Shown in pieces: positions 199 through 18,088 of a stretch of 64,000 nucleotides of DNA (the stretch's first letter is position 1; each line of letters begins with the position of its first letter). The notes below the pieces were generated by a model. The model worked only from the letters and a program-made list of their open reading frames with translations, ran no database searches and was not told the DNA's origin. This DNA comes from Escherichia phage vB_EcoM_H12: sequence record PP952733.1. The stretch is one strand, 5' to 3'. The translations under genes were made by a program, and so were the position numbers.

Positions 199-673
199 AA
201 GGGTTATTCACCCCGCTAGAGCAAAATTAGTCGGGGCTATGAAGAACTTGCAAACGGCTAATGCTCAAGTTGGGTATTTTCAAGAACAAGGTCAACATAG
301 CTCTGGTTTTTCTTATCCTGCTTTAATGTATTTACAAGAAGTTATTGGGGTTCCCTCAGCTTCTGGTAAAGTATATCGTAGGTTGTTTGAAATCACTATG
401 ATGCTAAACAGACAGACCTTGTTAGAGCAGACTAAGAAGAATCTATATAAGCAGCTTAGCAGTCTCAACACAGACCCTTCAAATACCTTAGAAGCATTTG
501 CAAAGAATGCTCAGAAGGCAATTAAAAGAGGTTTTGGTAATTCTGCTATACTCCCTCCTAACGCACCTTCCACAGTCAAGAAAAAAGGCTTTAACGCACC
601 TCTTGTTGAGACAGGTGACTTAAGGGACAACCTTGCTTATAAAATTTCTACTAAGAAGGGTATTAAAAAATGA
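191..673 (+). CDS. hypothetical virion morphogenesis / head-tail joining protein
   Basis: ATG at 191; tightly packed upstream of the tail module; no recognisable catalytic motif. Confidence 0.35.
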   Translation: MVKRVIHPARAKLVGAMKNLQTANAQVGYFQEQGQHSSGFSYPALMYLQEVIGVPSASGKVYRRLFEITMMLNRQTLLEQTKKNLYKQLSSLNTDPSNTLEAFAKNAQKAIKRGFGNSAILPPNAPSTVKKKGFNAPLVETGDLRDNLAYKISTKKGIKK

Positions 674-1071
674 GACTCTTAAACAGACACAGCTTTGTAG
701 TAAAGCGTAAAGTCTCTGAAGACGGTTATTATAATGATGATGGTGATTGGGTAGCTTCACAAGATATTGTAGAGGTTAACTGTAAAGGTAATATCCAGCC
801 ATACATCAAAGGTTCTGTAAAGAACGGTACACAGATTGCTTTACCAGAAGGTATTAGACTCACTGATACGAGAATCTTGTATACCACATATAAACTTAGA
901 ACTTCAGATGATGTAGAGTGGAATGAGTCTGACATTGTTATGATTGATGGTCATGAGTATGAAGTATTTATGACTATGGATTGGTCACAACAATTAGCCC
1001 ATACGTCCCATTATGAATATATCATTATTAGAAGGGATAAAATGAATGCAGTTAGAAACAGCAGAACTTGA
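670..1071 (+). CDS. hypothetical head-tail connector-like protein
   Basis: Start overlaps the upstream stop; position in structural operon. Confidence 0.35.
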   Translation: MRLLNRHSFVVKRKVSEDGYYNDDGDWVASQDIVEVNCKGNIQPYIKGSVKNGTQIALPEGIRLTDTRILYTTYKLRTSDDVEWNESDIVMIDGHEYEVFMTMDWSQQLAHTSHYEYIIIRRDKMNAVRNSRT

Positions 1072-1645
1072 AAAAGGTCTAGTTAGAACCTTAGTGGATG
1101 TTATTGGTCACAGACTAGCTCGTGATAAAAATAATAGACCAAATGTAATTAGAGCTTACCCTTCTGATAACTCAAATGACAAAGGTTTAAAACCTGACCA
1201 GCCATTTATTACCGTATATTGTCAAGATGCTGCAACACCTTATGGTTGGGTTCTTGATAAGTTTGTTGAGGATGATGTAGTTTGCTATAGAATTGCTTTT
1301 CAAATTCCAGTATTAATTACGGTAAATGGTAAAGGTGCTCACAGTATTATGCTTGAGCTTAAACAACGATTAGAGATGAGTTCAGTCAGAGATTTAATTC
1401 TTGAAGAGACAGGAGCTACAGTTTTAGACACTGGAGCTATCCCAAATGACTACACTTATCTTAATACAGATTTCGAAAATTCTGCACCTCTTGTTGTAAC
1501 TCTTGTAAAAAATTCAGTCCTGAAAGATGAACGTGGAGGTATCATTGAACGTGTCATTGTTGATGGTGAATTAGTTTACGAAGAAGGACAAGAGCCACCA
1601 GAATATACTATCCATCTAGATGTAGACTCCAAAGGGGTAAAATAA
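1046..1645 (+). CDS. hypothetical tail completion-like protein
   Basis: Operon position immediately upstream of the putative sheath gene. Confidence 0.35.
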   Translation: MQLETAELEKGLVRTLVDVIGHRLARDKNNRPNVIRAYPSDNSNDKGLKPDQPFITVYCQDAATPYGWVLDKFVEDDVVCYRIAFQIPVLITVNGKGAHSIMLELKQRLEMSSVRDLILEETGATVLDTGAIPNDYTYLNTDFENSAPLVVTLVKNSVLKDERGGIIERVIVDGELVYEEGQEPPEYTIHLDVDSKGVK

Positions 1646-2998
1646 ATGTGGAATCCAATTGTTAATGTAGATATTACATTGAACACCGCAGGAACTACAA
1701 GAGAAGGTTTTGGGCTGCCACTATTTTTAGCTTCAACAGATAACTTTGAAGAAAGAGTCCGTGGTTACACTTCCTTAACTGAAGTTGCTGAAGATTTCGA
1801 TGAAAATTCTGCTGCATATAAGGCTGCTAAACAACTTTGGAGTCAGACTCCTAAAGTAACTCAGCTTTATATTGGTAGACGTGCTATGCAGTACACTGTA
1901 TCAATTCCTGATGAGGTTACTGAGAGCACCGACTATTCTTTAACTGTAGCTGTGAGCGGTGGAGTTTCTCAGCCATTCCAGTACACTTCACAGTCAGAAG
2001 ATACTGCTGAGAAGGTGCTACAGCAGCTTAAAACTCAGATTGAAGCAGAACCTTCTGTAAAAGACCTTGTTACTGTCAATGTAACTGGTGCTGGCGGTTC
2101 AGCAACAATGGTAATCACCAAAGCTGGTGTCAACGACTTCGTGAAGGTTACTACTACAGCACAAACAGTGTCAATTGCAAGCACAACTGCTGACACAGCA
2201 TCGACTGCTCTGGCAGCTATTGAAGCGTATTCAACTGACTGGTATTTCATTGCAGCAGAAGACAGAACTCAACAGTTTGTCTTAGCAATGGCTTCTGAGA
2301 TTCAAGCTCGTAAGAAGATTTTCTTTACAGCTAACTCCGATGTAGCAGCACTGCAAGGTACAGAATTAGCGAGTGCAAATGATGTTCCAGCACAGCTTGC
2401 TAAGAATCAGTACACTCGTACAGTTTGCTTGTGGCATCACACAGCAGCAGAAGACTATCCAGAAATGGCTTATATTGCTTATGGTGCTCCGTATGATGCA
2501 GGTTCAATTGCTTGGGGTAACGCACAGTTAACTGGTGTAGCTGCTTCTCTACAGCCATCTAATCAGAGACCTCTGACAAGTATTCAGAAGTCAGCTTTAG
2601 ATGCACGTCACTGTAACTTTATTGACCTTGATGGTGGTGTTCCAGTGGTTCGTAGAGGGATTACTTCTGGTGGGGAATGGATTGATATCATCCGTGGTGT
2701 TGACTGGTTAGAATCAGACCTGAAAACTTCTCTGAGAGACTTGCTAATTAACCAGAAGGGTGGTAAGATTACTTATGATGATACTGGTATTACCCGTATT
2801 CGTCAAGTCATTGAAACCTCTCTGCAAAGAGCAGTCAACAGAAACTTCCTGTCATCTTACACAGTTAATGTTCCTAAAGCCTCTCAAGTTGCTTTGGCAG
2901 ACAAGAAAGCTCGTATCCTGAAAGATGTTACCTTCGCAGGTATCTTGGCAGGGGCTATCTTGGATGTTGACTTGAAAGGTACAGTGGCTTACGAATAA
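1646..2998 (+). CDS. putative tail sheath protein
   Basis: 450 aa ORF followed by a 148 aa tube-sized ORF, a chaperone pair and the tape measure; synteny only. Confidence 0.5.
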   Translation: MWNPIVNVDITLNTAGTTREGFGLPLFLASTDNFEERVRGYTSLTEVAEDFDENSAAYKAAKQLWSQTPKVTQLYIGRRAMQYTVSIPDEVTESTDYSLTVAVSGGVSQPFQYTSQSEDTAEKVLQQLKTQIEAEPSVKDLVTVNVTGAGGSATMVITKAGVNDFVKVTTTAQTVSIASTTADTASTALAAIEAYSTDWYFIAAEDRTQQFVLAMASEIQARKKIFFTANSDVAALQGTELASANDVPAQLAKNQYTRTVCLWHHTAAEDYPEMAYIAYGAPYDAGSIAWGNAQLTGVAASLQPSNQRPLTSIQKSALDARHCNFIDLDGGVPVVRRGITSGGEWIDIIRGVDWLESDLKTSLRDLLINQKGGKITYDDTGITRIRQVIETSLQRAVNRNFLSSYTVNVPKASQVALADKKARILKDVTFAGILAGAILDVDLKGTVAYE

Positions 2999-3013
2999 TA
3001 GAGGTAAATTGGA

Positions 3014-3460
3014 ATGGCTATGTATCAGCAATATTCCCCTAAAGACGTTGTGTGTAGCTGGAATGGTATTGCCATTGAAGGCTTTGCCCCAGACTCATTC
3101 TTACGTCTACAGAGAACATCACCACTTGTGACACCAGTTGTAGGTGCAGGTGGTCAGGTTGCTCTGACAAGAAATGCAGACAAGACAGGTACTATTGAGA
3201 TTGAGCTAATGCAGACTTCTCTCTCTAATCAGATGCTTTCTGCAATTCAAGCTAAACAAGACAATATGGAACTTGAAGAAGATATCTCTTCTAACTTCGT
3301 AATCTACGACCCATCAGGCTCTGTTCTGGCAACTGGTATTAATGCTTGGTTGCAGGAATTACCACAGATTGAACTTGGTCGTGACCAGAACTCTAAAACT
3401 TGGATTTTTGGTTGTGAGAAGCTAGACTACACTTCTACAATTCCAGCGTCAAGTGTTTAA
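3014..3460 (+). CDS. putative tail tube protein
   Basis: 148 aa; between sheath-sized ORF and chaperones; followed by an intrinsic terminator. Confidence 0.5.
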   Translation: MAMYQQYSPKDVVCSWNGIAIEGFAPDSFLRLQRTSPLVTPVVGAGGQVALTRNADKTGTIEIELMQTSLSNQMLSAIQAKQDNMELEEDISSNFVIYDPSGSVLATGINAWLQELPQIELGRDQNSKTWIFGCEKLDYTSTIPASSV

Positions 3461-3472
3461 TAAATCCTATAA

Positions 3473-3504
3473 GGGGGAGACTTTAAAAGGTCTTCCCCTT
3501 TTTT
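3473..3504 (+). terminator. rho-independent terminator after tube gene
   Basis: GGGGGAGAC / GTCTTCCCC stem (one G-U pair), loop TTTAAAAG, then TTTTTT. Confidence 0.55.
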
Positions 3505-3533
3505 GTTTCTTTTAAAAGTATTAAGGAATCACA

Positions 3534-3932
3534 ATGAAAACAGAATCTAGAGTAATTAATGGTAAGAAAGTAAATATCGTTCTGCTTGGGGCAAGAGATG
3601 GTATTAAGATGTCTATGAAGTTGGGTAAAATTGTTGTTCCAACATTTGCACAGATGCTGTCAAGCCTGACTGATAAAGATAAGAAAGAAGCTCCAATGGT
3701 TCCATTTAAAGAACTTGTTGAAGCTTGTTTTGACAGAATTGAAGAAATTAACCTTGAAGAAATGGCTACCCTGTTATTTCAAGGGGCAACTGTTGATGAC
3801 TTCCCACTTAATATTGATACATACTTCCAAGCAAACTATGGTGAATTTATTGATTACTTAGTATTTGCGCTGGAGGCAAACTTCGGAAGTTTTTTCGAAG
3901 CAAGCATTTTCAAAAGCCTAACTTCTCAGTAA
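3534..3932 (+). CDS. tail assembly chaperone (short form)
   Basis: 132 aa acidic protein directly upstream of the tape measure; slippery TTTTTTC near its 3' end. Confidence 0.55.
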   Translation: MKTESRVINGKKVNIVLLGARDGIKMSMKLGKIVVPTFAQMLSSLTDKDKKEAPMVPFKELVEACFDRIEEINLEEMATLLFQGATVDDFPLNIDTYFQANYGEFIDYLVFALEANFGSFFEASIFKSLTSQ

Positions 3933-4174: not shown

Positions 4175-9558
<5,384 letters not shown>

Positions 9559-9559
<1 letters not shown>

Positions 9560-11028
9560 TGGCAGGATTAACTACAACAGGATTACAAACTCTAAGATAT
9601 CAGGAGATTTTTGATAATATCAAATCAAGACTTCTTAGAGATATTTCACCCAATCTTGACGTTTCTGAAGATAGTCAATTAGGACTCTTCCTAGCTTCAA
9701 TTGCAAGGTCTTTAGCAGATACTCATGAGATTCTATCAGAAATCTACGATGGTGGGACAATTGATAAAGCTGAAGGTTTTAACCTTGACGACATTACAGC
9801 TTTGAACGCGGTGTATAGGTATGTTGCTCAGGCAACAAGAGGTCAGGTTGAGTTTACTGGAACAACTGGTGCTACCATTCCTTCAACAACAAGATTAAGA
9901 AGTACTGCCGGAAACATCTTTTATCCAGTTAATAACATTACCCTTACTCCATCATATTGTGTTGAAGCTATCCTTGAAGTTAACTCTTTACGAACTGATG
10001 CAGATTATGTTATTATTATTGATAACGTCATTTTCTCATATAAACCAACCTCATTAGACACAATCACCACGCTGCTAACAAAATTAGCAGAAGCTATTAA
10101 TGGTGGTATTGTAGCAAAAGCAGAAGTCATTAATGATGGAGCCGCACTAAGAGTCTATAAAGACGAGGGTGATATCATTGCAAGAACAAACCCTATGGTT
10201 GTCACTGCAACAACGTTTCTGACCTTTACAAAAATTACAACTATTTCAGATGTAGTAGCTGAAGAGGTTGGTGCTACCCCTGCTTTGGCTGGTACGCTTA
10301 TTGAGATTGAGACAACTGTTGATGGTCTTGACAGTATTTATAACAGGTATGATTTAACAACTGGTAGAAACGAAGAAACTGACACAGAACTTAGACAGAG
10401 ATATTTAGAATCTTTAGCAGTTACTGGTGTAGGGACTTTGGATGCAATTGTAGCTGCTGTTAAAAGAGTTCAAGGTGTCTCAGATGCTTCAGGTGTTGAA
10501 AATGATACTGAAGAGACAAGCTCAGAAGGTCTTCCACCAAAATCTTTTAAGATTGTTGTGGTTGGTGGTCAAAATGATAATGTTGCTCAAGCAATCTGGG
10601 ATACAAAACCTGCTGGTATTAGGGCTTATGGCTCAATTTTTGGTACAGCCCATGATTTAGGTGGTTTGGCACATAATATTTATTTTAGCAGACCAACACC
10701 AAAATACGCATTTGTTAAAGTCTCTTACTCTTTATATGATGAAGAAAGCTTGACAATCCCTGAAGAGGATATCAGAGACAGCATTGTACAAGGTATTAAT
10801 GCTTATGGAAGAACTCTTAAGGTTGGTAATGATGTTATCCCTAACAGAATCTATGGATATATCTATGACGTGATTAAAGGTATTGAGATTAATGAGGTTA
10901 AAGTAGCCTTATCAAACAGCCAATCAGTCCCACCTAGTGACGGGCAGTATACTACAGCAAGAATTACTGTTGACGGTGACCAATATACTGTTTGGGAAAG
11001 CAGCCAGTATACCATCACTAAGGAGTAA
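9559..11028 (+). CDS. baseplate J-like protein
   Basis: 489 aa; position and length typical of gpJ/gp6-family wedge subunits. Confidence 0.6.
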
Positions 11029-11030
11029 TA

Positions 11031-11885
11031 ATGTTTGAAAAGATTGATAGTGTTTATTACAAAACACTTGATGAAAGGACTGTAACACAGTTTAAAGATA
11101 AATTTATCTATACAAGTATCTTGAAAGCAATCACTGATGAATTACAAACTCTAGAGGATGTTTGCTGGCAGATGCACACAGAGAGAAATATCAGGACGTC
11201 AGTAGGCCAACAACTTGATAACATTGGCTCACTGATTAAAGTTCCTAGACCTTTAGGTGCAGATGATGAAACATATAGGGCTATGCTTTATATTCAAATC
11301 TTCCTAAGACGCTCTGACACCACCCCAACATTCTTGCAAAAAGCAATTATGACGCTATACGGTGCAACTTTCTCTCAGATTTTTGAGCATATTACTCCTA
11401 AGATTGGTGGTATCGTTATCCGTATCAACACTAGAAAAAGCGTTCTAGATGCTGCATATACACTATCAAAGATTTCTGCAACAACTACTGGCTCCGCTGT
11501 TATCTTAAGAGATGTTACTTTAAATGGGACTGCTTGGACACCTGTAGAGGTTGCTGATTCATCACTTGCTATTGTTGATGATAAAGAGAACTGGTTTGTA
11601 ACTGATGCTAACAGGGGTCTTGTCACAAATAACACTGGTGGCTCTCTGGAGTCCAACTTAGTAGGTAGTCTTGCAGATGCTGGTGTTATTGATGGTTACT
11701 TTAGGGTTGACAGAACAGCAAACTCACAGAGTGATGATTATATGACTGTAGATAGGTCCAATAATAGTGGCTATTTCATCGTTGGTAAAGAAGCTATTGC
11801 AGGTGGTGCATATGGAATCATGGCTGAGGTTGCACAAATTGTCAAAGGCAGAAAAGATAAATCACAACAAGAAGGAAATTCTTAA
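11031..11885 (+). CDS. putative baseplate / tail-fibre attachment protein
   Basis: Follows J-like gene as in P2 gpI / XkdU-type modules. Confidence 0.4.
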
Positions 11886-12187
11886 TGGCAGTTTTAAATT
11901 GGTCTACAAATGAAGTAGATACTGATGGTAACCAGTTAAAAGTTTTACCACCACCGGAAGTTCAAGAGACAGGTCTTTTAAAGGGTGAACCTATGGGTAG
12001 ACAGTGGTTCAACTATATTATCAACTACCTGCTTAATAAAGTAAACGGCACTGTTGGTGAAGTTCGCTCATATGCAACTCAGCAACCAGATTTAGTAGCC
12101 AATGGCTGGAAACTAATTAAGTCTGAGACAGGGACTGCAACAACAAGTACAAAGAACCTTTACACATATGAATATGTAGGAGCTTAA
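11885..12187 (+). CDS. hypothetical tail-fibre associated protein
   Basis: 100 aa, coupled to the downstream fibre gene. Confidence 0.35.
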
Positions 12188-12189
12188 TA

Positions 12190-13365
12190 ATGGCAGTCGG
12201 TGAAATTCAAATTAGTGCCTTGCCACAAGCGGCATTACCTGTTGATTTAAGTGATATCTTCCATCTTAAGCAAGGTGTTGAGGATAAAAGATGTACGCTT
12301 GAACAGTTGTTAGCACCTCACGCATCTTTGAGGAATAATCCTCATGGTGTAACCAAATCGCAAGTGGGTCTTGATAATGTTATTAACTCTCTTCAATTAG
12401 TTGCAGCTAATAACTTGTCAGACATTGTGAATGTTGCTGAGGCAAGAGCAAATCTACAAATTATGTCGTCAGAGGAAGTGAATAACTTAATTCAGCAACA
12501 TATTGACGACAAAAGTAACCCACACAATACAACGAAAGCACAGGTCGGTTTAAGTAATGTTCAGAACTGGACAACATCTAATCTGTACAACGAAGATGCT
12601 GATAAGTACGCCACCGCGAGAGCAGTGAATAATTTATACAAAGCTATTCAAGCATCATATCCAGTAGGGACTATTCATCTATCTGTTAACTCTGCCAACC
12701 CATCCACTTACTTGCTTTGTGGAGGTACTTGGGAGTTAGTTTCTAAAGGTAGAGCACTAGTTGGTTACGATACAGATTCTAGACCTGTTGGTTCAATGTT
12801 TGGTTCTCAGACTGTAGCATTAACGAATAATAATTTACCAGCACACACACACTCTATCTATCTAACAGGTGGTGGTCATACACACTCTGCAAGTGTATCT
12901 ATCTCTAGTTTTGATTATGGTTCAAAGAGTACATCAACTTTTGACTACGGTACAAAAACGACTAATAGTGCTGGTGCTCATACTCACACGTTTAGTGGTA
13001 CAACAAGTAATGCTGGTAACCACAACCACAGAGTACCTATGAGGGGTAATGATAGGGGTGGTACAAATGCTATTACTGCATCTGCTGATGCTGGTGTTGG
13101 TAATGCTATGTATACTGATTTAGCTGGTGCTCACACCCATAGCTTCTCAGGCACAACTGCATCATCTGGTGCTCATAGCCATACTCTTGCAATTGGTGCT
13201 CACAGCCACACTGTTAATATTGGTTCACACAGTCATACGGGCACTGTTACTGTTTCTAGCTCTGAGCATACACACTCAGGGACATCTGGTTCTGTTGGTG
13301 GTGGTCAAGCTTTCAGTGTTGAGCAACCATCTTTTGTAGTATATGTGTGGCAGAGAACAGCTTAA
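12190..13365 (+). CDS. tail fibre protein (short paralogue)
   Basis: Repeated NPH..T..QVGL motifs; C-terminal Ser/Thr/Gly-rich HTHS/GAHSHT repeats; C-terminus shared with the 849 aa fibre. Confidence 0.75.
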   Translation: MAVGEIQISALPQAALPVDLSDIFHLKQGVEDKRCTLEQLLAPHASLRNNPHGVTKSQVGLDNVINSLQLVAANNLSDIVNVAEARANLQIMSSEEVNNLIQQHIDDKSNPHNTTKAQVGLSNVQNWTTSNLYNEDADKYATARAVNNLYKAIQASYPVGTIHLSVNSANPSTYLLCGGTWELVSKGRALVGYDTDSRPVGSMFGSQTVALTNNNLPAHTHSIYLTGGGHTHSASVSISSFDYGSKSTSTFDYGTKTTNSAGAHTHTFSGTTSNAGNHNHRVPMRGNDRGGTNAITASADAGVGNAMYTDLAGAHTHSFSGTTASSGAHSHTLAIGAHSHTVNIGSHSHTGTVTVSSSEHTHSGTSGSVGGGQAFSVEQPSFVVYVWQRTA

Positions 13366-13376
13366 TTTCTTTACAG

Positions 13377-13398
13377 GGGCTTTGTAGCCCCTTTTAAG
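13377..13398 (+). terminator. hairpin GGGGCT-TTGT-AGCCCC with short T-run (terminator or attenuator)
   Basis: Perfect 6 bp GC-rich stem; follows fibre gene; T-tract only 4 nt. Confidence 0.35.
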
Positions 13399-13411
13399 AG
13401 GAAAATTTATA

Positions 13412-15961
13412 ATGGCAGATTACAAATTGAGTCAATTAAACTCAATCGACACAATTCGTTCAGAAGACCTATTGCACATCAGAGTTAAGAAAAGACCTGA
13501 AATGTTGGGTGACGAAGACCGTAGAATGACCTATCAAGACTTCTTAGCTTCCTTCAAACTAGAAAGGTTTGTTCAGATTGCTGGGAGTACTATGGTTGGG
13601 GATTTAGGTATTGTCAAGTTACTTTACGGTGGTAAGGCAGTATTTGACCCAACAGGCTCTTCTGAGATTACTATTGGGGATATTTTAAAGTCTTTTAAAA
13701 TTAACTCAAATGGGCTTAAACTCACTATTGCAGATGCCACAAGGTCGGCAACTGTTTATCATACTTTGAATAAACCAAGCCCTAATGAACTTGGTATGAG
13801 AACTAATGAAGAGAATGATGCAAGATATGCAAGGCTTGCTGTTACAAACACATTCTCTGGGACTCAGAACATTCAAGGTGATGCTAACTTACTTCGCCTT
13901 AGAAACCGAAATGCAAACAATGCACAATACATTGAAGGTGTAAACCCAGATGGTTCAGCTAGATGGTGGGTTGGTATTGGTAGCAATGGTTCTGACGAAG
14001 TAAAACTGTACAATAACAAATACAACTCAGTCTTGACTGTTGCAAGTAATATCTCTGTTAATAAGTCTTTAGCAATCACTGGACAAGTCCAACCTTCAGA
14101 TTTCTCTAACTTAGATGCTAGATACTTTACTCAGACAGTTGCTAATCAGAGATTTGCACAGTTAGCTGGTAATAACACTTTTACAGGTGCTAACACATTT
14201 AGGACTATGAGTGTTATTTCAAATGCTGCTGCTATCACACTGCAATGTGCATCAGCAAACGAATCCCTGTATCTACTTGCAAAAGATTATGAAGGTGGAA
14301 ACTTATGGTATCTCGGTAAAGGTAGTTCAGGTGCTGGTGTAACTATCTACAACTATACCACTAACACCTCTTTGGTCTTAGATGCTGCTGGAGTATCAGC
14401 AAATAAAAATGTCAGAATCACTGGACAAGTTCAACCTTCAGATTGGGCTAACATTGACTCTAGATATATTCCGGCAGCAACATTAAGTACAATTGCAAGA
14501 ACTAATGCAAGGAATACTTTTAATGGTGTACAGACAGTTGTTACGGATAATGAAGGTCTGATTGTTAAAAACTCTACTCAGAATAGACCATTATATATTC
14601 GTGGTGTGGACACTACTAATGTATCAAGATGGTGGATTGGTGTTGGTGGTGCTGATACGAATGATGTTACCCTAAATAACAGTTATTCTGGAACCCAATT
14701 GGTTCTCGGAAATACAACATCATACATTAACAAAACATTGACTATTGCTGGACAAGTTCAACCTTCAGATTTTTCTAACTTAGATGCTAGATACTTTACG
14801 CAAAGTGCTAGTGATAGCAGATACCTAAGAATCAGAAGCACTAGCTTCAATGTGGGAAACACTGATAAGTGGGCTAAAATTGCCACTGTTGTGATGCCAC
14901 AATCAGCATCAACTGCTGTTATTGAGGTATTTGGTGGGTCAGGTTTTAATATTAATACACCACAACAAGCAGGTAAATGTGAAATTGTTCTGCGAACTTC
15001 AAATAACAATCCAAAGGGCTTAAATGTTGTTGCTTGGAGAACATCAGACAACACCATTGTCAGGGATATTGGTTATGTGAATACTTCTGGAGACACCTAT
15101 GATATTTACTATCTTGCTGGTACGTATCAAAACAGCACAACGACAAGGGTTCAGTCTTCTAGTAATGCAAGTGTACAGTTGTTTGAAGTCCCACAGACAT
15201 TTGATGATGCTCCACAAGGTATTGTGAAGGGTACAATTGCAAAATACTACACAAGTTTGCAAAAACCAACCCCTTCAGAAATTGGTGCATACACTAAAGC
15301 AGAGACTGACCAGAAGATTGCAGAAGCAATTAGTGACTCTACAGACCTGAATAAAATCTATCCAGTAGGTATTGTGACGTGGTTTAATAGTAATGTTAAC
15401 CCTAATACAGCACTTCCTGGTCTAACTTGGACGTACCTGAATAATGGTGTTGGCAGAACTATTAGAATTGCAGCAGCAAATGGTTCAGATGTTGCTACAA
15501 CTGGTGGTTCAGACTCTGTAACGTTATCTGTTGGTAACTTGCCTTCACACACGCATAGTTTCTCTGCTACTACTTCATCATTTGATTATGGTACTAAGAC
15601 TTCTAGTACAACTGGTAACCATAACCATAACAGAGGGACTATGGAGATTACTGGTACAGTAGGTTACTTTAGAAGTGACTCTAGCAGCTTCTACACAGCA
15701 AGTGGTGCATTTACACTTGGTAGCTCAACTGCTTCTAAAGGCTTTACTGGTTCTCACTTCACTTATGGTATCCCTGCTAACTTCAATGCGTCAAGAACTT
15801 GGTCTGGTGTAACTAACACAACTGGTAACCACAGCCACACTGTTGGTATTGGTGCTCACAGCCACACAGTTAGTGGTAACACAGGTGGTACTGGTTCTGG
15901 TTCAGCATTTAGTGTTACTAACCAGTTCTACAAGTTAATGGCTTGGGTGAGAACTGCTTAA
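13412..15961 (+). CDS. tail fibre protein (long paralogue)
   Basis: 849 aa; three internal ITGQVQPSD(F/W)(S/A)N(L/I)D(A/S)RY repeats; C-terminal HxH repeats and ...AFSV...W.RTA end like the 12190 gene. Confidence 0.8.
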   Translation: MADYKLSQLNSIDTIRSEDLLHIRVKKRPEMLGDEDRRMTYQDFLASFKLERFVQIAGSTMVGDLGIVKLLYGGKAVFDPTGSSEITIGDILKSFKINSNGLKLTIADATRSATVYHTLNKPSPNELGMRTNEENDARYARLAVTNTFSGTQNIQGDANLLRLRNRNANNAQYIEGVNPDGSARWWVGIGSNGSDEVKLYNNKYNSVLTVASNISVNKSLAITGQVQPSDFSNLDARYFTQTVANQRFAQLAGNNTFTGANTFRTMSVISNAAAITLQCASANESLYLLAKDYEGGNLWYLGKGSSGAGVTIYNYTTNTSLVLDAAGVSANKNVRITGQVQPSDWANIDSRYIPAATLSTIARTNARNTFNGVQTVVTDNEGLIVKNSTQNRPLYIRGVDTTNVSRWWIGVGGADTNDVTLNNSYSGTQLVLGNTTSYINKTLTIAGQVQPSDFSNLDARYFTQSASDSRYLRIRSTSFNVGNTDKWAKIATVVMPQSASTAVIEVFGGSGFNINTPQQAGKCEIVLRTSNNNPKGLNVVAWRTSDNTIVRDIGYVNTSGDTYDIYYLAGTYQNSTTTRVQSSSNASVQLFEVPQTFDDAPQGIVKGTIAKYYTSLQKPTPSEIGAYTKAETDQKIAEAISDSTDLNKIYPVGIVTWFNSNVNPNTALPGLTWTYLNNGVGRTIRIAAANGSDVATTGGSDSVTLSVGNLPSHTHSFSATTSSFDYGTKTSSTTGNHNHNRGTMEITGTVGYFRSDSSSFYTASGAFTLGSSTASKGFTGSHFTYGIPANFNASRTWSGVTNTTGNHSHTVGIGAHSHTVSGNTGGTGSGSAFSVTNQFYKLMAWVRTA

Positions 15962-16040: not shown

Positions 16041-16238
16041 ATGCCTACAATCCTAGCAATTCTTCTAAAAAATCTAGGTAGCTTCTTCTGGAAACTCATT
16101 TTATCCCTTCTAAGTGAATACATGATTGAGAAAGTGTTCTTTAAGCTTGCAAGATATCTTGCGAGTAAGACAGATACACCTATTGATGATGAGTTCGTAG
16201 ATAACTTAGAAAAAGCTTTTAAGGGGGAGAATAAATGA
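16041..16238 (+). CDS. small membrane protein, possible holin-like
   Basis: 65 aa; N-terminal hydrophobic helix and charged C-terminus; after the fibre genes. Confidence 0.3.
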   Translation: MPTILAILLKNLGSFFWKLILSLLSEYMIEKVFFKLARYLASKTDTPIDDEFVDNLEKAFKGENK

Positions 16239-16606
16239 AGTGGCTAGAGGAAGCTTTTAAAAATAATATTGGTGCAATTGTAGTTGGTATTTTTAGTGTT
16301 ATTGGGATGTATACCACCATGCAAGTTTCGGATGGTAAGCAAGAAGTGTCTGTCACAACAAAGTTACAGCAGCTAGATAATTATAGCAAATCTAATTACT
16401 CAGCTATTCGTGATTTACAGTCTGACATGAGACTGATTCAGCTAGGGATGGAGAACCAGAAAGTTCAGTTAGAGAATGTTAAGGGTGAGAACGCAAAACT
16501 TACTAAAACTCTGGACAAATTCTCTGACAGTGTGAACAATCTGGCTCAATCAGTATCAGCCTTGCAAGCTATTACTGAAAAGAACACAAAGAATACTGAA
16601 AAATAA
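16235..16606 (+). CDS. membrane-anchored coiled-coil protein (XhlA-like)
   Basis: N-terminal TM segment (IGAIVVGIFSVIGMY) then heptad-like Q/L/N-rich region. Confidence 0.3.
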   Translation: MKWLEEAFKNNIGAIVVGIFSVIGMYTTMQVSDGKQEVSVTTKLQQLDNYSKSNYSAIRDLQSDMRLIQLGMENQKVQLENVKGENAKLTKTLDKFSDSVNNLAQSVSALQAITEKNTKNTEK

Positions 16607-16612
16607 AATTTA

Positions 16613-16641
16613 AGGCTCCTTTTTACGGGAGCCTTTTTGTT
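16613..16641. terminator. bidirectional intrinsic terminator between convergent gene blocks
   Basis: GGCTCC-TTTTTACG-GGAGCC flanked by A/T runs on both sides; sits between + block end (16606) and - block end (16642). Confidence 0.6.
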
Positions 16642-17541
16642 TTACTTGCCTACTGACAGAGGTGCTTCAATCTTACCTGCATGTTGGTAGTTATTAATCC
16701 CACCAATAAAATCACTTGCTGTAAGATGTTTTAAGTCACTTAAAGTGTTAAGTGGAATACCAATCTCAAAAGTTGGTGCATGGAACTCTTCATTGTTCAT
16801 CAGTTCATAAACCTGCTTCATATGGTTCTGATAAATCTGAGTATCTCCAAAGACACCTATCAAGTACCGTGGAGTGTATCCAGTCATCTTACAAAGAACT
16901 TCCAGAATAAAACCGTAAGATGCAATATTAAACGGAAGTCCTAAAAAGGTGTCTACTGAACGCTGATACCATTGTAAGTCAACTTCACCCTCGTTAGTGA
17001 TATAAATCTGAAACAGAACATGACAAGGTGCTAAAGCCATCGAGTTTGCTGCAATATCTGCTGCATTCCAAGCATTAACAAGCATGTAACGGTCTGTGAT
17101 ATCACCCTTCATCTTCGTTACTAAGGTCTCTAGTTGGTCTACAACACAACCATTATGACCTTCAAAGTTTCTCCACTGAACCCCATAGATTCTTCCACCT
17201 GCATCCTCTAACCAATCTTGTTCAGAAGAATAATTAGAGCTTAACCAGCGTTTAAAATCATCTGACCAGATAGTCCAGCGTTCCCCATCATTTTCACCCC
17301 AAGTGCGGTAACGGAGTTCACCCAGCTTATTCTCACCGTTCAGGAACCATAAAGCTTCACCGATAACTTGTCGTGTAAACACCTGTTTAGATGTTAAGAG
17401 TGGGAAACCAGTTCGCATATCAAAACGAAACTGAGGTGGAGCAAATGCAGAGATAACATCACCAGTTCGTGTAGTACGCAGTTCACCAACGGATAAAACA
17501 TGGTTCAGGATATTTTTGTAACTTGTATCTGCTTGTGACAT
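16642..17541 (-). CDS. thyA: thymidylate synthase
   Basis: 299 aa; classic ThyA motifs (RTGxxT, ALxPCH catalytic Cys region, GLPFNIASY). Confidence 0.95.
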   Translation of the reverse strand: MSQADTSYKNILNHVLSVGELRTTRTGDVISAFAPPQFRFDMRTGFPLLTSKQVFTRQVIGEALWFLNGENKLGELRYRTWGENDGERWTIWSDDFKRWLSSNYSSEQDWLEDAGGRIYGVQWRNFEGHNGCVVDQLETLVTKMKGDITDRYMLVNAWNAADIAANSMALAPCHVLFQIYITNEGEVDLQWYQRSVDTFLGLPFNIASYGFILEVLCKMTGYTPRYLIGVFGDTQIYQNHMKQVYELMNNEEFHAPTFEIGIPLNTLSDLKHLTASDFIGGINNYQHAGKIEAPLSVGK

Positions 17542-17542
17542 A

Positions 17543-18088
17543 TCAAAAGTGTCCTTTTACTTGTGGTGTATAGATATCAAAAGTTGCTTTTCCATCTGCT
17601 GATGGTCTTGACTGAATCTTAGCGAAAATTTTACGGTCATGCAACTTGTCAAAGAAGTTCTCAAAAGGTAGATATACAGTTGCCTCTTCATTAACTTCAT
17701 GGAAAACTGTATGGAACACTACATCAGCATACGGTAAAGCACTGACAAGGATACCTGAACCACCAATTACGAAAACATCTTCTTCAATATTACTGTCAAG
17801 ATACTTTAAAAATGCTCCAAAAGAGTCTTGATGAGCTTTAGCAAACATAACATCATCTTTACTAAAATCTATACCGTAATAAGGCACAGAGTTTGTCAAG
17901 ATAAGGTTTTCACGTTCAGGTAAAGGGTTACTTCCCAGAGTCTTGAAAGTCTCATTACCCATTACTACTAAGTTGTCTTTAGTGAGTCTCTTAAACTCTT
18001 GCATATCCTCTTTATGTCGAGGCCACGGCATACCAGTTGGAGTACCAAACTCACCATTTTCACCACTTGCAAAGATTAATTTAATCAT
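17543..18088 (-). CDS. folA: dihydrofolate reductase
   Basis: 181 aa; GMPW motif, VVMGNETFKTLG and VIGGSG NADPH-binding motifs; adjacent to thyA. Confidence 0.85.
   Translation of the reverse strand: MIKLIFASGENGEFGTPTGMPWPRHKEDMQEFKRLTKDNLVVMGNETFKTLGSNPLPERENLILTNSVPYYGIDFSKDDVMFAKAHQDSFGAFLKYLDSNIEEDVFVIGGSGILVSALPYADVVFHTVFHEVNEEATVYLPFENFFDKLHDRKIFAKIQSRPSADGKATFDIYTPQVKGHF

Follow-up and report, generated by a model that had tools for sequence, protein, structure and literature searches.

The window analysed in this study is a stretch of 64,000 nucleotides (nt) from Escherichia phage vB_EcoM_H12 (PP952733.1), and we focused on two adjacent tail-fibre genes on its plus strand, to which all fibre features described below belong. 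The first open reading frame, ORF1 (12190-13365), encodes 391 amino acids (aa) and was assigned to the short tail fibre (STF); the second, ORF2 (13412-15961), encodes 849 aa and was assigned to the long tail fibre (LTF). The pair occupied exactly the interval from 12190 to 15961 in which a first-pass annotation, made from the sequence alone, had placed two tail-fibre paralogues.

ORF1 matched phrog_2097 (tail fibre, E=1e-138) and ORF2 matched phrog_4277 over its full length (tail fibre, E=0). With the Pfam profiles, ORF1 scored 66.9 bits against Gp10_C (PF21939; cut-off 27), and three gp37_trimer repeats were found in the shaft of ORF2 (E=1e-76). The fibre interval was 96.1% identical at the nt level to Escherichia phages ZX4221 and KEP3 by megablast and 95.6% identical to genes 82 and 83, annotated as tail fibres, of wV8, an E. 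coli O157:H7 phage (Ounavirinae, Felixounavirus); the fibre region matched 229 phage records, and in 23 of these the match covered at least 80% of it. Based on the DNA identity to wV8 and the tail-fibre PHROGs, the locus is assigned as the STF and LTF pair of a wV8-like Felix O1-type myovirus. The counterparts of ORF1 are Bas63 gp26, Sf14 gp52, wV8 gene 82, and Felix O1 gp76, and those of ORF2 are Bas63 gp27, Sf14 gp53, wV8 gene 83, and Felix O1 gp77.

Fibre tips of the gp37 type

When the proteins were searched against the PDB with phmmer, residues 145-362 of ORF1 matched residues 17-227 of the T4 gp37 tip (2XGF, E=1.9e-26), and residues 707-828 of ORF2 matched residues 101-218 of the same entry (E=1e-6). 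These matches support the initial description of both proteins as tail fibres and show that their His-x-His (HxH) regions are homologous to the gp37 tip, in which the corresponding motifs coordinate iron. ORF1 also matched gp10, far more weakly (E=2.7e-6). Homologues of ORF1 are often named 'phage baseplate protein', and one could suppose that ORF1 is a gp10-like baseplate structural protein and that ORF2 alone sets the host range. We consider this very unlikely: ORF1 resembles the gp37 tip much more closely than it does gp10, and the match spans the whole HxH needle, which is absent from gp10. Furthermore, the homologue described from cryo-electron microscopy (cryo-EM) of Bas63 and Sf14 is a 430 Å fibre with a gp37-like tip (PMC12609058; PMC11821841), and the head insert of ORF1 is hypervariable and tracks the host group.

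In T4 gp37, the collar (D10) comprises residues 811-881 and 1010-1026, the stem 882-931 and 960-1009, and the receptor-contacting tip 932-959; seven irons, each held by an HxH triplet, lie in the trimeric needle (PMC6957217). These bounds were used in a three-way alignment of ORF1, ORF2, and T4 gp37. The HxH blocks seen near both C-termini in the first-pass annotation consisted of nine motifs in ORF1 (His at 219, 230, 264, 278, 315, 329, 338, 347, and 360) and four in ORF2 (His at 713, 737, 807, and 816). The motifs of both fibres aligned with T4 motifs 883, 915, and 929 on one side and 966, 980, 989, and 998 on the other, and they were arranged around an insert as 4+5 in ORF1 and 2+2 in ORF2.

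In both fibres, a collar domain resembling those of gp10, gp11, and gp12 precedes the needle. In ORF1, the N-terminal part of the collar (aa 146-216; 12625-12837) is followed by a putative ascending needle strand (aa 217-281; 12838-13032), which contains four HxH motifs and FDYG[ST]K repeats and corresponds to T4 motifs 883, 915, and 929 with one extra HxH. The head insert (aa 282-313; 13033-13128) aligned to the T4 tip 932-959 and is the predicted receptor-contacting tip. The descending needle strand (aa 314-364; 13129-13281) has a 9-residue period, GxHxHTxxI, and its five HxH motifs correspond to T4 motifs 966, 980, 989, and 998 with one extra. The C-terminal strand predicted to run back to the collar (aa 365-391; 13282-13362), ending in ...AFSVEQPSFVVYVWQRTA, aligned to T4 1010-1026.

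The order of parts was the same in ORF2. Its N-terminal collar part (aa 643-710; 15338-15541) was similar to the ORF1 collar and was modelled by AlphaFold2 (AF2) with a pLDDT of 82-89. By the three-way alignment, the ascending needle strand (aa 711-741; 15542-15634) and the descending needle strand (aa 801-823; 15812-15880) contain two HxH motifs each and enclose a head insert without histidine pairs (aa 742-800; 15635-15811), which is the predicted receptor-contacting tip; the C-terminal strand (aa 824-849; 15881-15958), ending in ...AFSVTNQFYKLMAWVRTA, aligned to the C-terminal collar segment of T4. The insert is 59 residues long in ORF2 and 32 in ORF1. At the two head-proximal T4 positions, ORF2 has GTVGYF (at H929/H931) and ANFNAS, not HxH.

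The C-terminal strings quoted in the first-pass annotation were exact, and both end in RTA. These tails (...AFSV...W.RTA) aligned to the T4 segment returning to the collar. Because a chain with the gp37 fold doubles back at the head, the C-terminus of each fibre would sit in the collar and not at the distal tip. For the present fibres, two findings suggest the fold-back, namely the RTA tail aligning to T4 1010-1026 and a conserved-variable-conserved pattern; the head models were of low confidence. The cryo-EM account of Bas63 gives both the STF and the LTF a collar, a needle with HxH motifs, a head, and a fold-back, and the tips are described as hypervariable within the genus (PMC12609058).

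Homology between the two fibres

ORF1 and ORF2 were 32% identical over 194 aa by BLASTP (E=6e-16). The similarity was then scored in five segments with 2000 shuffles each. None of the shuffles reached the observed score for the collar (z=7.7), which is non-repetitive (YPVG...NP.T...G.TW...), for the ascending HxH block (z=7.5), for the descending HxH block (z=7.1), or for the C-terminal tail (z=11.1), whereas 1854 of the 2000 did so for the insert between the HxH blocks (z=-1.1). These segment scores indicate that the homology of the two C-terminal regions is genuine in all segments but the insert.

The first-pass annotation had itself considered whether the likeness might be limited to low-complexity composition. 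The HxH blocks are indeed compositionally biased, and Foldseek gave no significant structural match with the monomer model of ORF2. Nevertheless, a mere Ser/Thr/Gly/His bias with neither common fold nor common ancestry is hardly tenable, given the scores of the non-repetitive collar and of the tail, the matches of both proteins to 2XGF, the score of ORF1 above the Gp10_C cut-off, and the alignment of the HxH registers with T4. A common fold and metal geometry are suggested by this homology.

The near-identical DNA stretches mentioned in the first-pass annotation were present but short. The longest exact run between the two genes was 20 nt (ATTGGTGCTCACAGCCACAC, 13192-13211 and 15848-15867), lying in the descending strand of each fibre and encoding IGAHSHT in ORF2; by our own arithmetic, two genes of 1176 and 2550 nt would share such an exact 20-nt run by chance about 3e-6 times. 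The best 30-nt window was identical at 27/30 positions, and BLASTN aligned 54 nt at 81.5% identity (13163-13216 and 15819-15872, E=2e-10). We rejected the idea that the pair arose by recent duplication, since the ORF1 tip scored higher against T4 gp37 (96 bits) than against the ORF2 tip (67 bits) and since the DNA similarity of the two genes is confined to these 54 nt.

Variability of the head inserts across Ounavirinae

The fibre genes were compared with those of wV8, Felix O1, Sf18, VpaE1, KhF2, HP1, PC79-13, LinBro, SP2, and SME50, using nine of these phages for the STF and all ten for the LTF; vB_SflM_004 was left out, its fibre genes being annotated in fragments. For ORF1, most of the collar (up to aa 200) had an identity to the panel of 0.88-0.90 and the tail one of 0.79-0.91, and the value fell to 0.38-0.46 in the head insert, the least conserved part of the protein. 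The corresponding values in ORF2 were 0.90-0.92 for the collar, 0.93-0.99 for the tail, and 0.31-0.32 for the insert.

The alignment of fibre genes across related phages, which had been proposed as a check on the first-pass annotation, located breakpoints in ORF2. Against Felix O1, VpaE1, KhF2, and SP2, the DNA identity was at least 0.9 over 15250-15609, dropped to 0.3-0.6 over 15610-15849, and was at least 0.9 again from 15850. The breakpoints near 15610 and 15850 are sharp and lie at HxH-flanked boxes, and the 20-nt run at 15848-15867 coincides exactly with the 3' junction of the variable cassette.

These results bear on the phrase 'shared tips with divergent shafts', by which the first-pass annotation had summarised the pair. 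If both fibres carried the same receptor-binding tip and differed in their shafts only, they would bind the same receptor at different reach. The homology of the collar, the proximal HxH repeats, and the C-terminal strand is in keeping with this idea, and in Felix O1 and SP2 both fibres do carry the same head cassette, as described below. We nevertheless regard it as unlikely for the present phage. The two inserts that align to the receptor-contacting tip of T4 are unrelated to each other (4/8 residues aligned) and differ in length, and the C-terminus common to both fibres aligns to the collar of T4 and not to the tip (PMC6957217; PMC12609058). What the fibres share is a collar and needle scaffold, and the phrase is not supported for their heads.

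Natural chimeras and exchange of head cassettes

Several phages carried fibre genes in which the head and the surrounding scaffold appeared to be of different descent. In the LTF gene of VpaE1, 287 nt (4541-4827 of locus L004) were 92.7% identical to nt 2692-2978 of T4 gene 37, and the encoded head was identical to T4 residues 926-965 at 35/40 aa; by sequence, this LTF is a T4 head cassette within a Felix O1-type scaffold. VpaE1, like T4, is described as using the truncated lipopolysaccharide (LPS) of E. coli B-type strains (PMC4690856).

The opposite arrangement was found in gene 37 of the Tequatrovirus CJY920 (648-3884 of locus L013). This gene is T4-like to nt 2804 (87%), resembles the felixounavirus LTF at nt 2806-3107 (87% to SME50 and 72% to 15573-15870 of the window), and is T4-like again at nt 3094-3237 (94%), the two 3' segments overlapping within the GIGAH box. 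Its head cassette (L013 3453-3754) is of the ORF2 type and lies between T4-type flanks, and the gp38 encoded downstream of it is T4-like at 99.5%. The head type of CJY920 also appears to be present in phage ZQ3 (MW630116).

Identical head types also occurred in the two fibres of one phage. The STF and LTF of Felix O1 have the same head (29/31 aa; 270 nt at 81%, L002 2091-2360 and 4550-4819), and so do those of SP2 (26/28 aa), which suggests that heads are exchanged within a genome, from one fibre gene to the other.

Where the junctions could be located, namely in ORF2 and CJY920, the 5' junction was the FDYGTK/GNHxH box and the 3' junction was the GIGAHxH box. Both marks of cassette exchange at HxH boxes were found, that is, variation between conserved boxes and recombinant junctions within the boxes. 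Tetart and colleagues (1996 and 1998, J Mol Biol) reportedly described such mosaic exchange at His boxes in the adhesin genes of T-even phages, with the boxes acting as recombination junctions. From the comparisons made here, the unit exchanged between phages is evidently the head cassette in a conserved scaffold, together with several blocks of the LTF shaft. Accordingly, of the modular exchange suggested in the first-pass annotation, the exchange of segments is borne out by the chimeras and the variability map, and the part to be amended is what is exchanged, which is the head and not the shafts alone.

Host association of the head types

Among phage records, 59 had the ORF2-type head and 60 had the ORF1-type head, and 56 of these records had both. 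Nearly all records with either head were from phages isolated on Shiga toxin-producing E. coli (STEC; O157, O103, and O111) or Shigella, and two were from phages isolated on Citrobacter. As their heads are unrelated, the STF and LTF most likely recognise different host surface structures, which are probably related to LPS.

The distribution of the heads fits an earlier hint from wV8. About half of the wV8-resistant O157 mutants were described as rough and about half as keeping the O157 serotype, which hints at two receptors (PMC2674420), and the two fibres of Sf14 are likewise said to bind possibly different receptors (PMC11821841).

The ORF2 head is double the T4 tip in size, and aromatic-rich GYF / RTW replaces the two head-proximal iron sites. 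We tentatively suggest that the ORF2 head (aa 742-800) could be a structurally distinct receptor-binding head that is passed as a whole between Ounavirinae and Tevenvirinae through recombination at the HxH boxes and that, together with the unrelated STF head inherited with it in the 56 shared records, might set a two-receptor STEC/Shigella tropism, one candidate receptor being the R3-type LPS core common to these hosts; this extended proposal is a doubtful one at present.

A probable shared scaffold with swappable heads

Taken together, the homology searches and the analogy with T4 make it quite probable that the two baseplate fibres share a gp37-type scaffold and carry different, swappable heads between their HxH blocks. 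In each fibre, the chain would make the first part of the collar and run out as one strand of a trimeric needle, in which the HxH pairs of three chains would coordinate a metal ion (Fe2+ in T4). At the far end it would form a small head, return as the second HxH strand, and complete the collar with the conserved ...W.RTA strand. The shared scaffold would consist of the collar, the proximal needle, and the C-terminal strand. By motif count, ORF1 would have up to nine metal sites and a head of about 32 residues, and ORF2 would have four metal sites and a head of about 59 residues that replaces two head-proximal His pairs. During adsorption, the fibres would act one after the other or at the same time. 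In Ounavirinae as a whole, the head and the adjacent distal needle would constitute a swappable cassette for which the conserved boxes could supply the homology for recombination, so that head swapping would re-assort host range and leave the scaffold for attachment and folding in place.

Several observations weigh against this explanation. The cassette boundaries of ORF1 were gradual, not sharp, on the DNA map. In T4, alanine substitutions at H929/H931 abolish plaque formation (PMC6957217); since the equivalent His pairs are replaced in ORF2, which lacks both head-proximal pairs, its distal needle would have to differ in build from that of T4. The single-chain AF2 models were moderate (pLDDT 65.5 and 74.7), with heads below 50, and the best hit of the Foldseek search with the ORF2 tip monomer had an E value of 0.36. 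ORF2 scored 24.7 bits against Gp10_C, narrowly below the curated cut-off of 27. No chaperone of the T4 gp38 type was detected by tblastn in the 64-kb window (best E=0.16; E=4e-123 for CJY920 as the control), indicating that assembly would differ from that of T4; chaperone homologues are likewise reported as missing in Sf14 (PMC11821841). As for the host, about 70-100 Salmonella phage records have the same fibre scaffolds, among which the ORF2-type head was found in one Salmonella phage and the ORF1-type head in three, one phage having both; the link between head type and host is correlative and appears confounded by shared ancestry.

Comparison with known systems

Bas63 gp26/gp27 and Sf14 gp52/gp53 are described as having the same gene order, with one short and one long fibre and gp37-like fold-back tips (PMC12609058; PMC11821841). 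The fibres of Sf14 are 391 and 792 aa (PMC11821841), compared with 391 and 849 aa in the window, and Sf14 head types are related to both heads of the window (72.7% and 63.8% aa). Bas63, compared by its published description and synteny, has an STF with seven di-histidine motifs and an LTF with six (PMC12609058), against nine and four here. ORF2 differs from the LTFs of Bas63 and Sf14 by an extra or alternative shaft block (14830-15250), which within the panel is shared with wV8 only.

The T4 gp37 tip has the same order of collar, ascending HxH strand, head, descending HxH strand, and collar strand, and FDYGTK and GIGAHxHTV are common to T4 and the window. It differs in having seven HxH motifs and a 28-residue tip, against nine or four motifs and 32 or 59 residues. 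Moreover, T4 needs gp38, encoded directly downstream, whereas the window is without a gp38 homologue, and the T4 tip is carried on a 1026-aa distal half-fibre joined via gp36, gp35, and gp34, whereas the fibres of the window are single proteins each.

The fibre genes of wV8 and Felix O1 are direct orthologues of ORF1 and ORF2. For the wV8 LTF, conserved N- and C-termini and internal variable blocks were noted in 2009 (PMC2674420), and the head of ORF2 is partly different from that of wV8 (81.7% aa). For Felix O1 genes 76 and 77, shared DNA repeats and the gp37 homology of both were noted in 2010 (PMC3185647). The head of Felix O1 is different from those of the window and common to both of its fibres, and its LTF has a 3+3 HxH arrangement. 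The gp37-adhesin homology of both VpaE1 fibres was published in 2015 (PMC4690856).

In the His-box exchange of T-even phages, GxHxH boxes flank the variable adhesin segments, as they do in the CJY920 and VpaE1 chimeras and at the ORF2 breakpoints. That exchange was among T-even phages, whereas the cassettes described here are exchanged across the boundary of Straboviridae (Tevenvirinae) and Ounavirinae and, in Felix O1, also from one fibre gene to the other.

The STF/LTF architecture and the variability of the tips are, according to these accounts, already known from Felix O1 (2010), wV8 (2009), VpaE1 (2015), and the cryo-EM of Sf14 and Bas63 (2025). The large-head allele with 2+2 HxH, its occurrence in a Tequatrovirus, and the co-occurrence of the two heads were not found stated in the available parts of the Felix O1, wV8, VpaE1, Sf14, and Bas63 accounts. 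These three details refine the known picture and are not a new kind of system.

Shafts and neighbouring genes

Upstream of the fibres lie a Baseplate_J wedge gene of 489 aa in the wedge 2 position (9559-11028, phrog_6), wedge protein 1 (11031-11885; PDB 9NDY, Bas63 gp24, E=6e-157), and an LTF platform protein of 100 aa (11885-12187, plus strand; phrog_4141), which matched PDB 9NDY chain S (Bas63 gp025) over its full length (E=1.9e-57). With the synteny anchored through the 9NDY chains, the order of wedge 2, wedge 1, LTF platform, and then both fibres was the same as in Bas63. Near their N-termini, ORF1 has the motif EDKRCT (aa 31-36; 12277-12297) and ORF2 has EDRRMT (aa 35-40; 13514-13531). 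Both agree with the baseplate-binding motif given for Sf14 gp52 and gp53 (EDRKCT and EDRKMT; PMC11821841), with the Cys in the short fibre only.

In the shaft of ORF1, a regular-expression search found two copies of NPHxxTKxQVGLxNV (12337-12381 and 12517-12561), and the stretch containing them was conserved across the panel (0.87-0.88). The shaft of ORF2 contained a linker repeat, ITGQVQPSDxxNxDxRY, in three DNA copies (14058-14133, 14400-14475, and 14727-14802; direct-repeat family D1, 70-84% identity). In the panel alignment, the linkers were conserved and the intervening blocks were variable, giving mosaic blocks at 13810-14050, 14170-14410, and 14830-15250. The identity of 14170-14410 to wV8 was just 0.43-0.67 between flanks of at least 0.93, and this block is, by alignment, an extra mosaic segment that distinguishes the window from its close relative. 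Conversely, 14830-15250 (approximately aa 474-613) was 0.97-1.0 identical to wV8 and, against the other eight panel phages, either at most 0.67 identical or without alignment. ORF2 is about 60 aa longer than most LTFs of the panel, the exception being HP1 (841 aa), largely because of this block; CJY920 gene 37 was weakly similar to 14876-15015 (68%).

The gap between ORF1 and ORF2 contains a stem-loop, GGGGCT-TTGT-AGCCCC, followed by TTTTAAG (13376-13399). The wV8 record annotates a rho-independent terminator at the homologous position between the fibres, whereas the terminator consensus scan did not call the stem-loop at 13376-13399, where the T-run is short. It may lower the expression of the LTF relative to the STF.

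Downstream of the LTF are two small ORFs of 65 and 123 aa (16041-16606), which belong to PHROGs of unknown function; the second is annotated as a holin in some relatives, and neither is chaperone-like. A strong bidirectional terminator-like hairpin (AAGGCTCC...GGAGCCTT, 16612-16635) then separates the rightward fibre block from a leftward thymidylate synthase / dihydrofolate reductase block (16642-18088), and the GC skew changes sign near the hairpin. Scans of positions 1-64000 for tRNA genes and Rfam families were negative. For wV8 and Felix O1, 23 and 22 tRNAs, respectively, are reported, and the window evidently leaves out the tRNA cluster.

Felix O1-like fibre genes (79% nt, 71% aa) were also present in MG065664.1 and MG065668.1, labelled 'Campylobacter phage A132' and 'A126', and one Staphylococcus-labelled record matched the fibre genes as well. 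These records are probably mislabelled or contaminated.

Significance

Because the architecture and variability of these fibres have already been published, the present findings leave the current understanding unchanged. Their use lies in locating specificity more precisely. Tail-fibre tips decide which bacteria a phage infects, and Felix O1-like phages are used in Salmonella diagnostics and in E. coli O157 biocontrol. Specificity is predicted to reside in the insert flanked by the HxH blocks rather than at the C-terminal end, so that 13033-13128 and 15635-15811, with junctions placed in the conserved boxes, would be the targets for engineering. The natural chimeras show that such head swaps are tolerated even across phage families.

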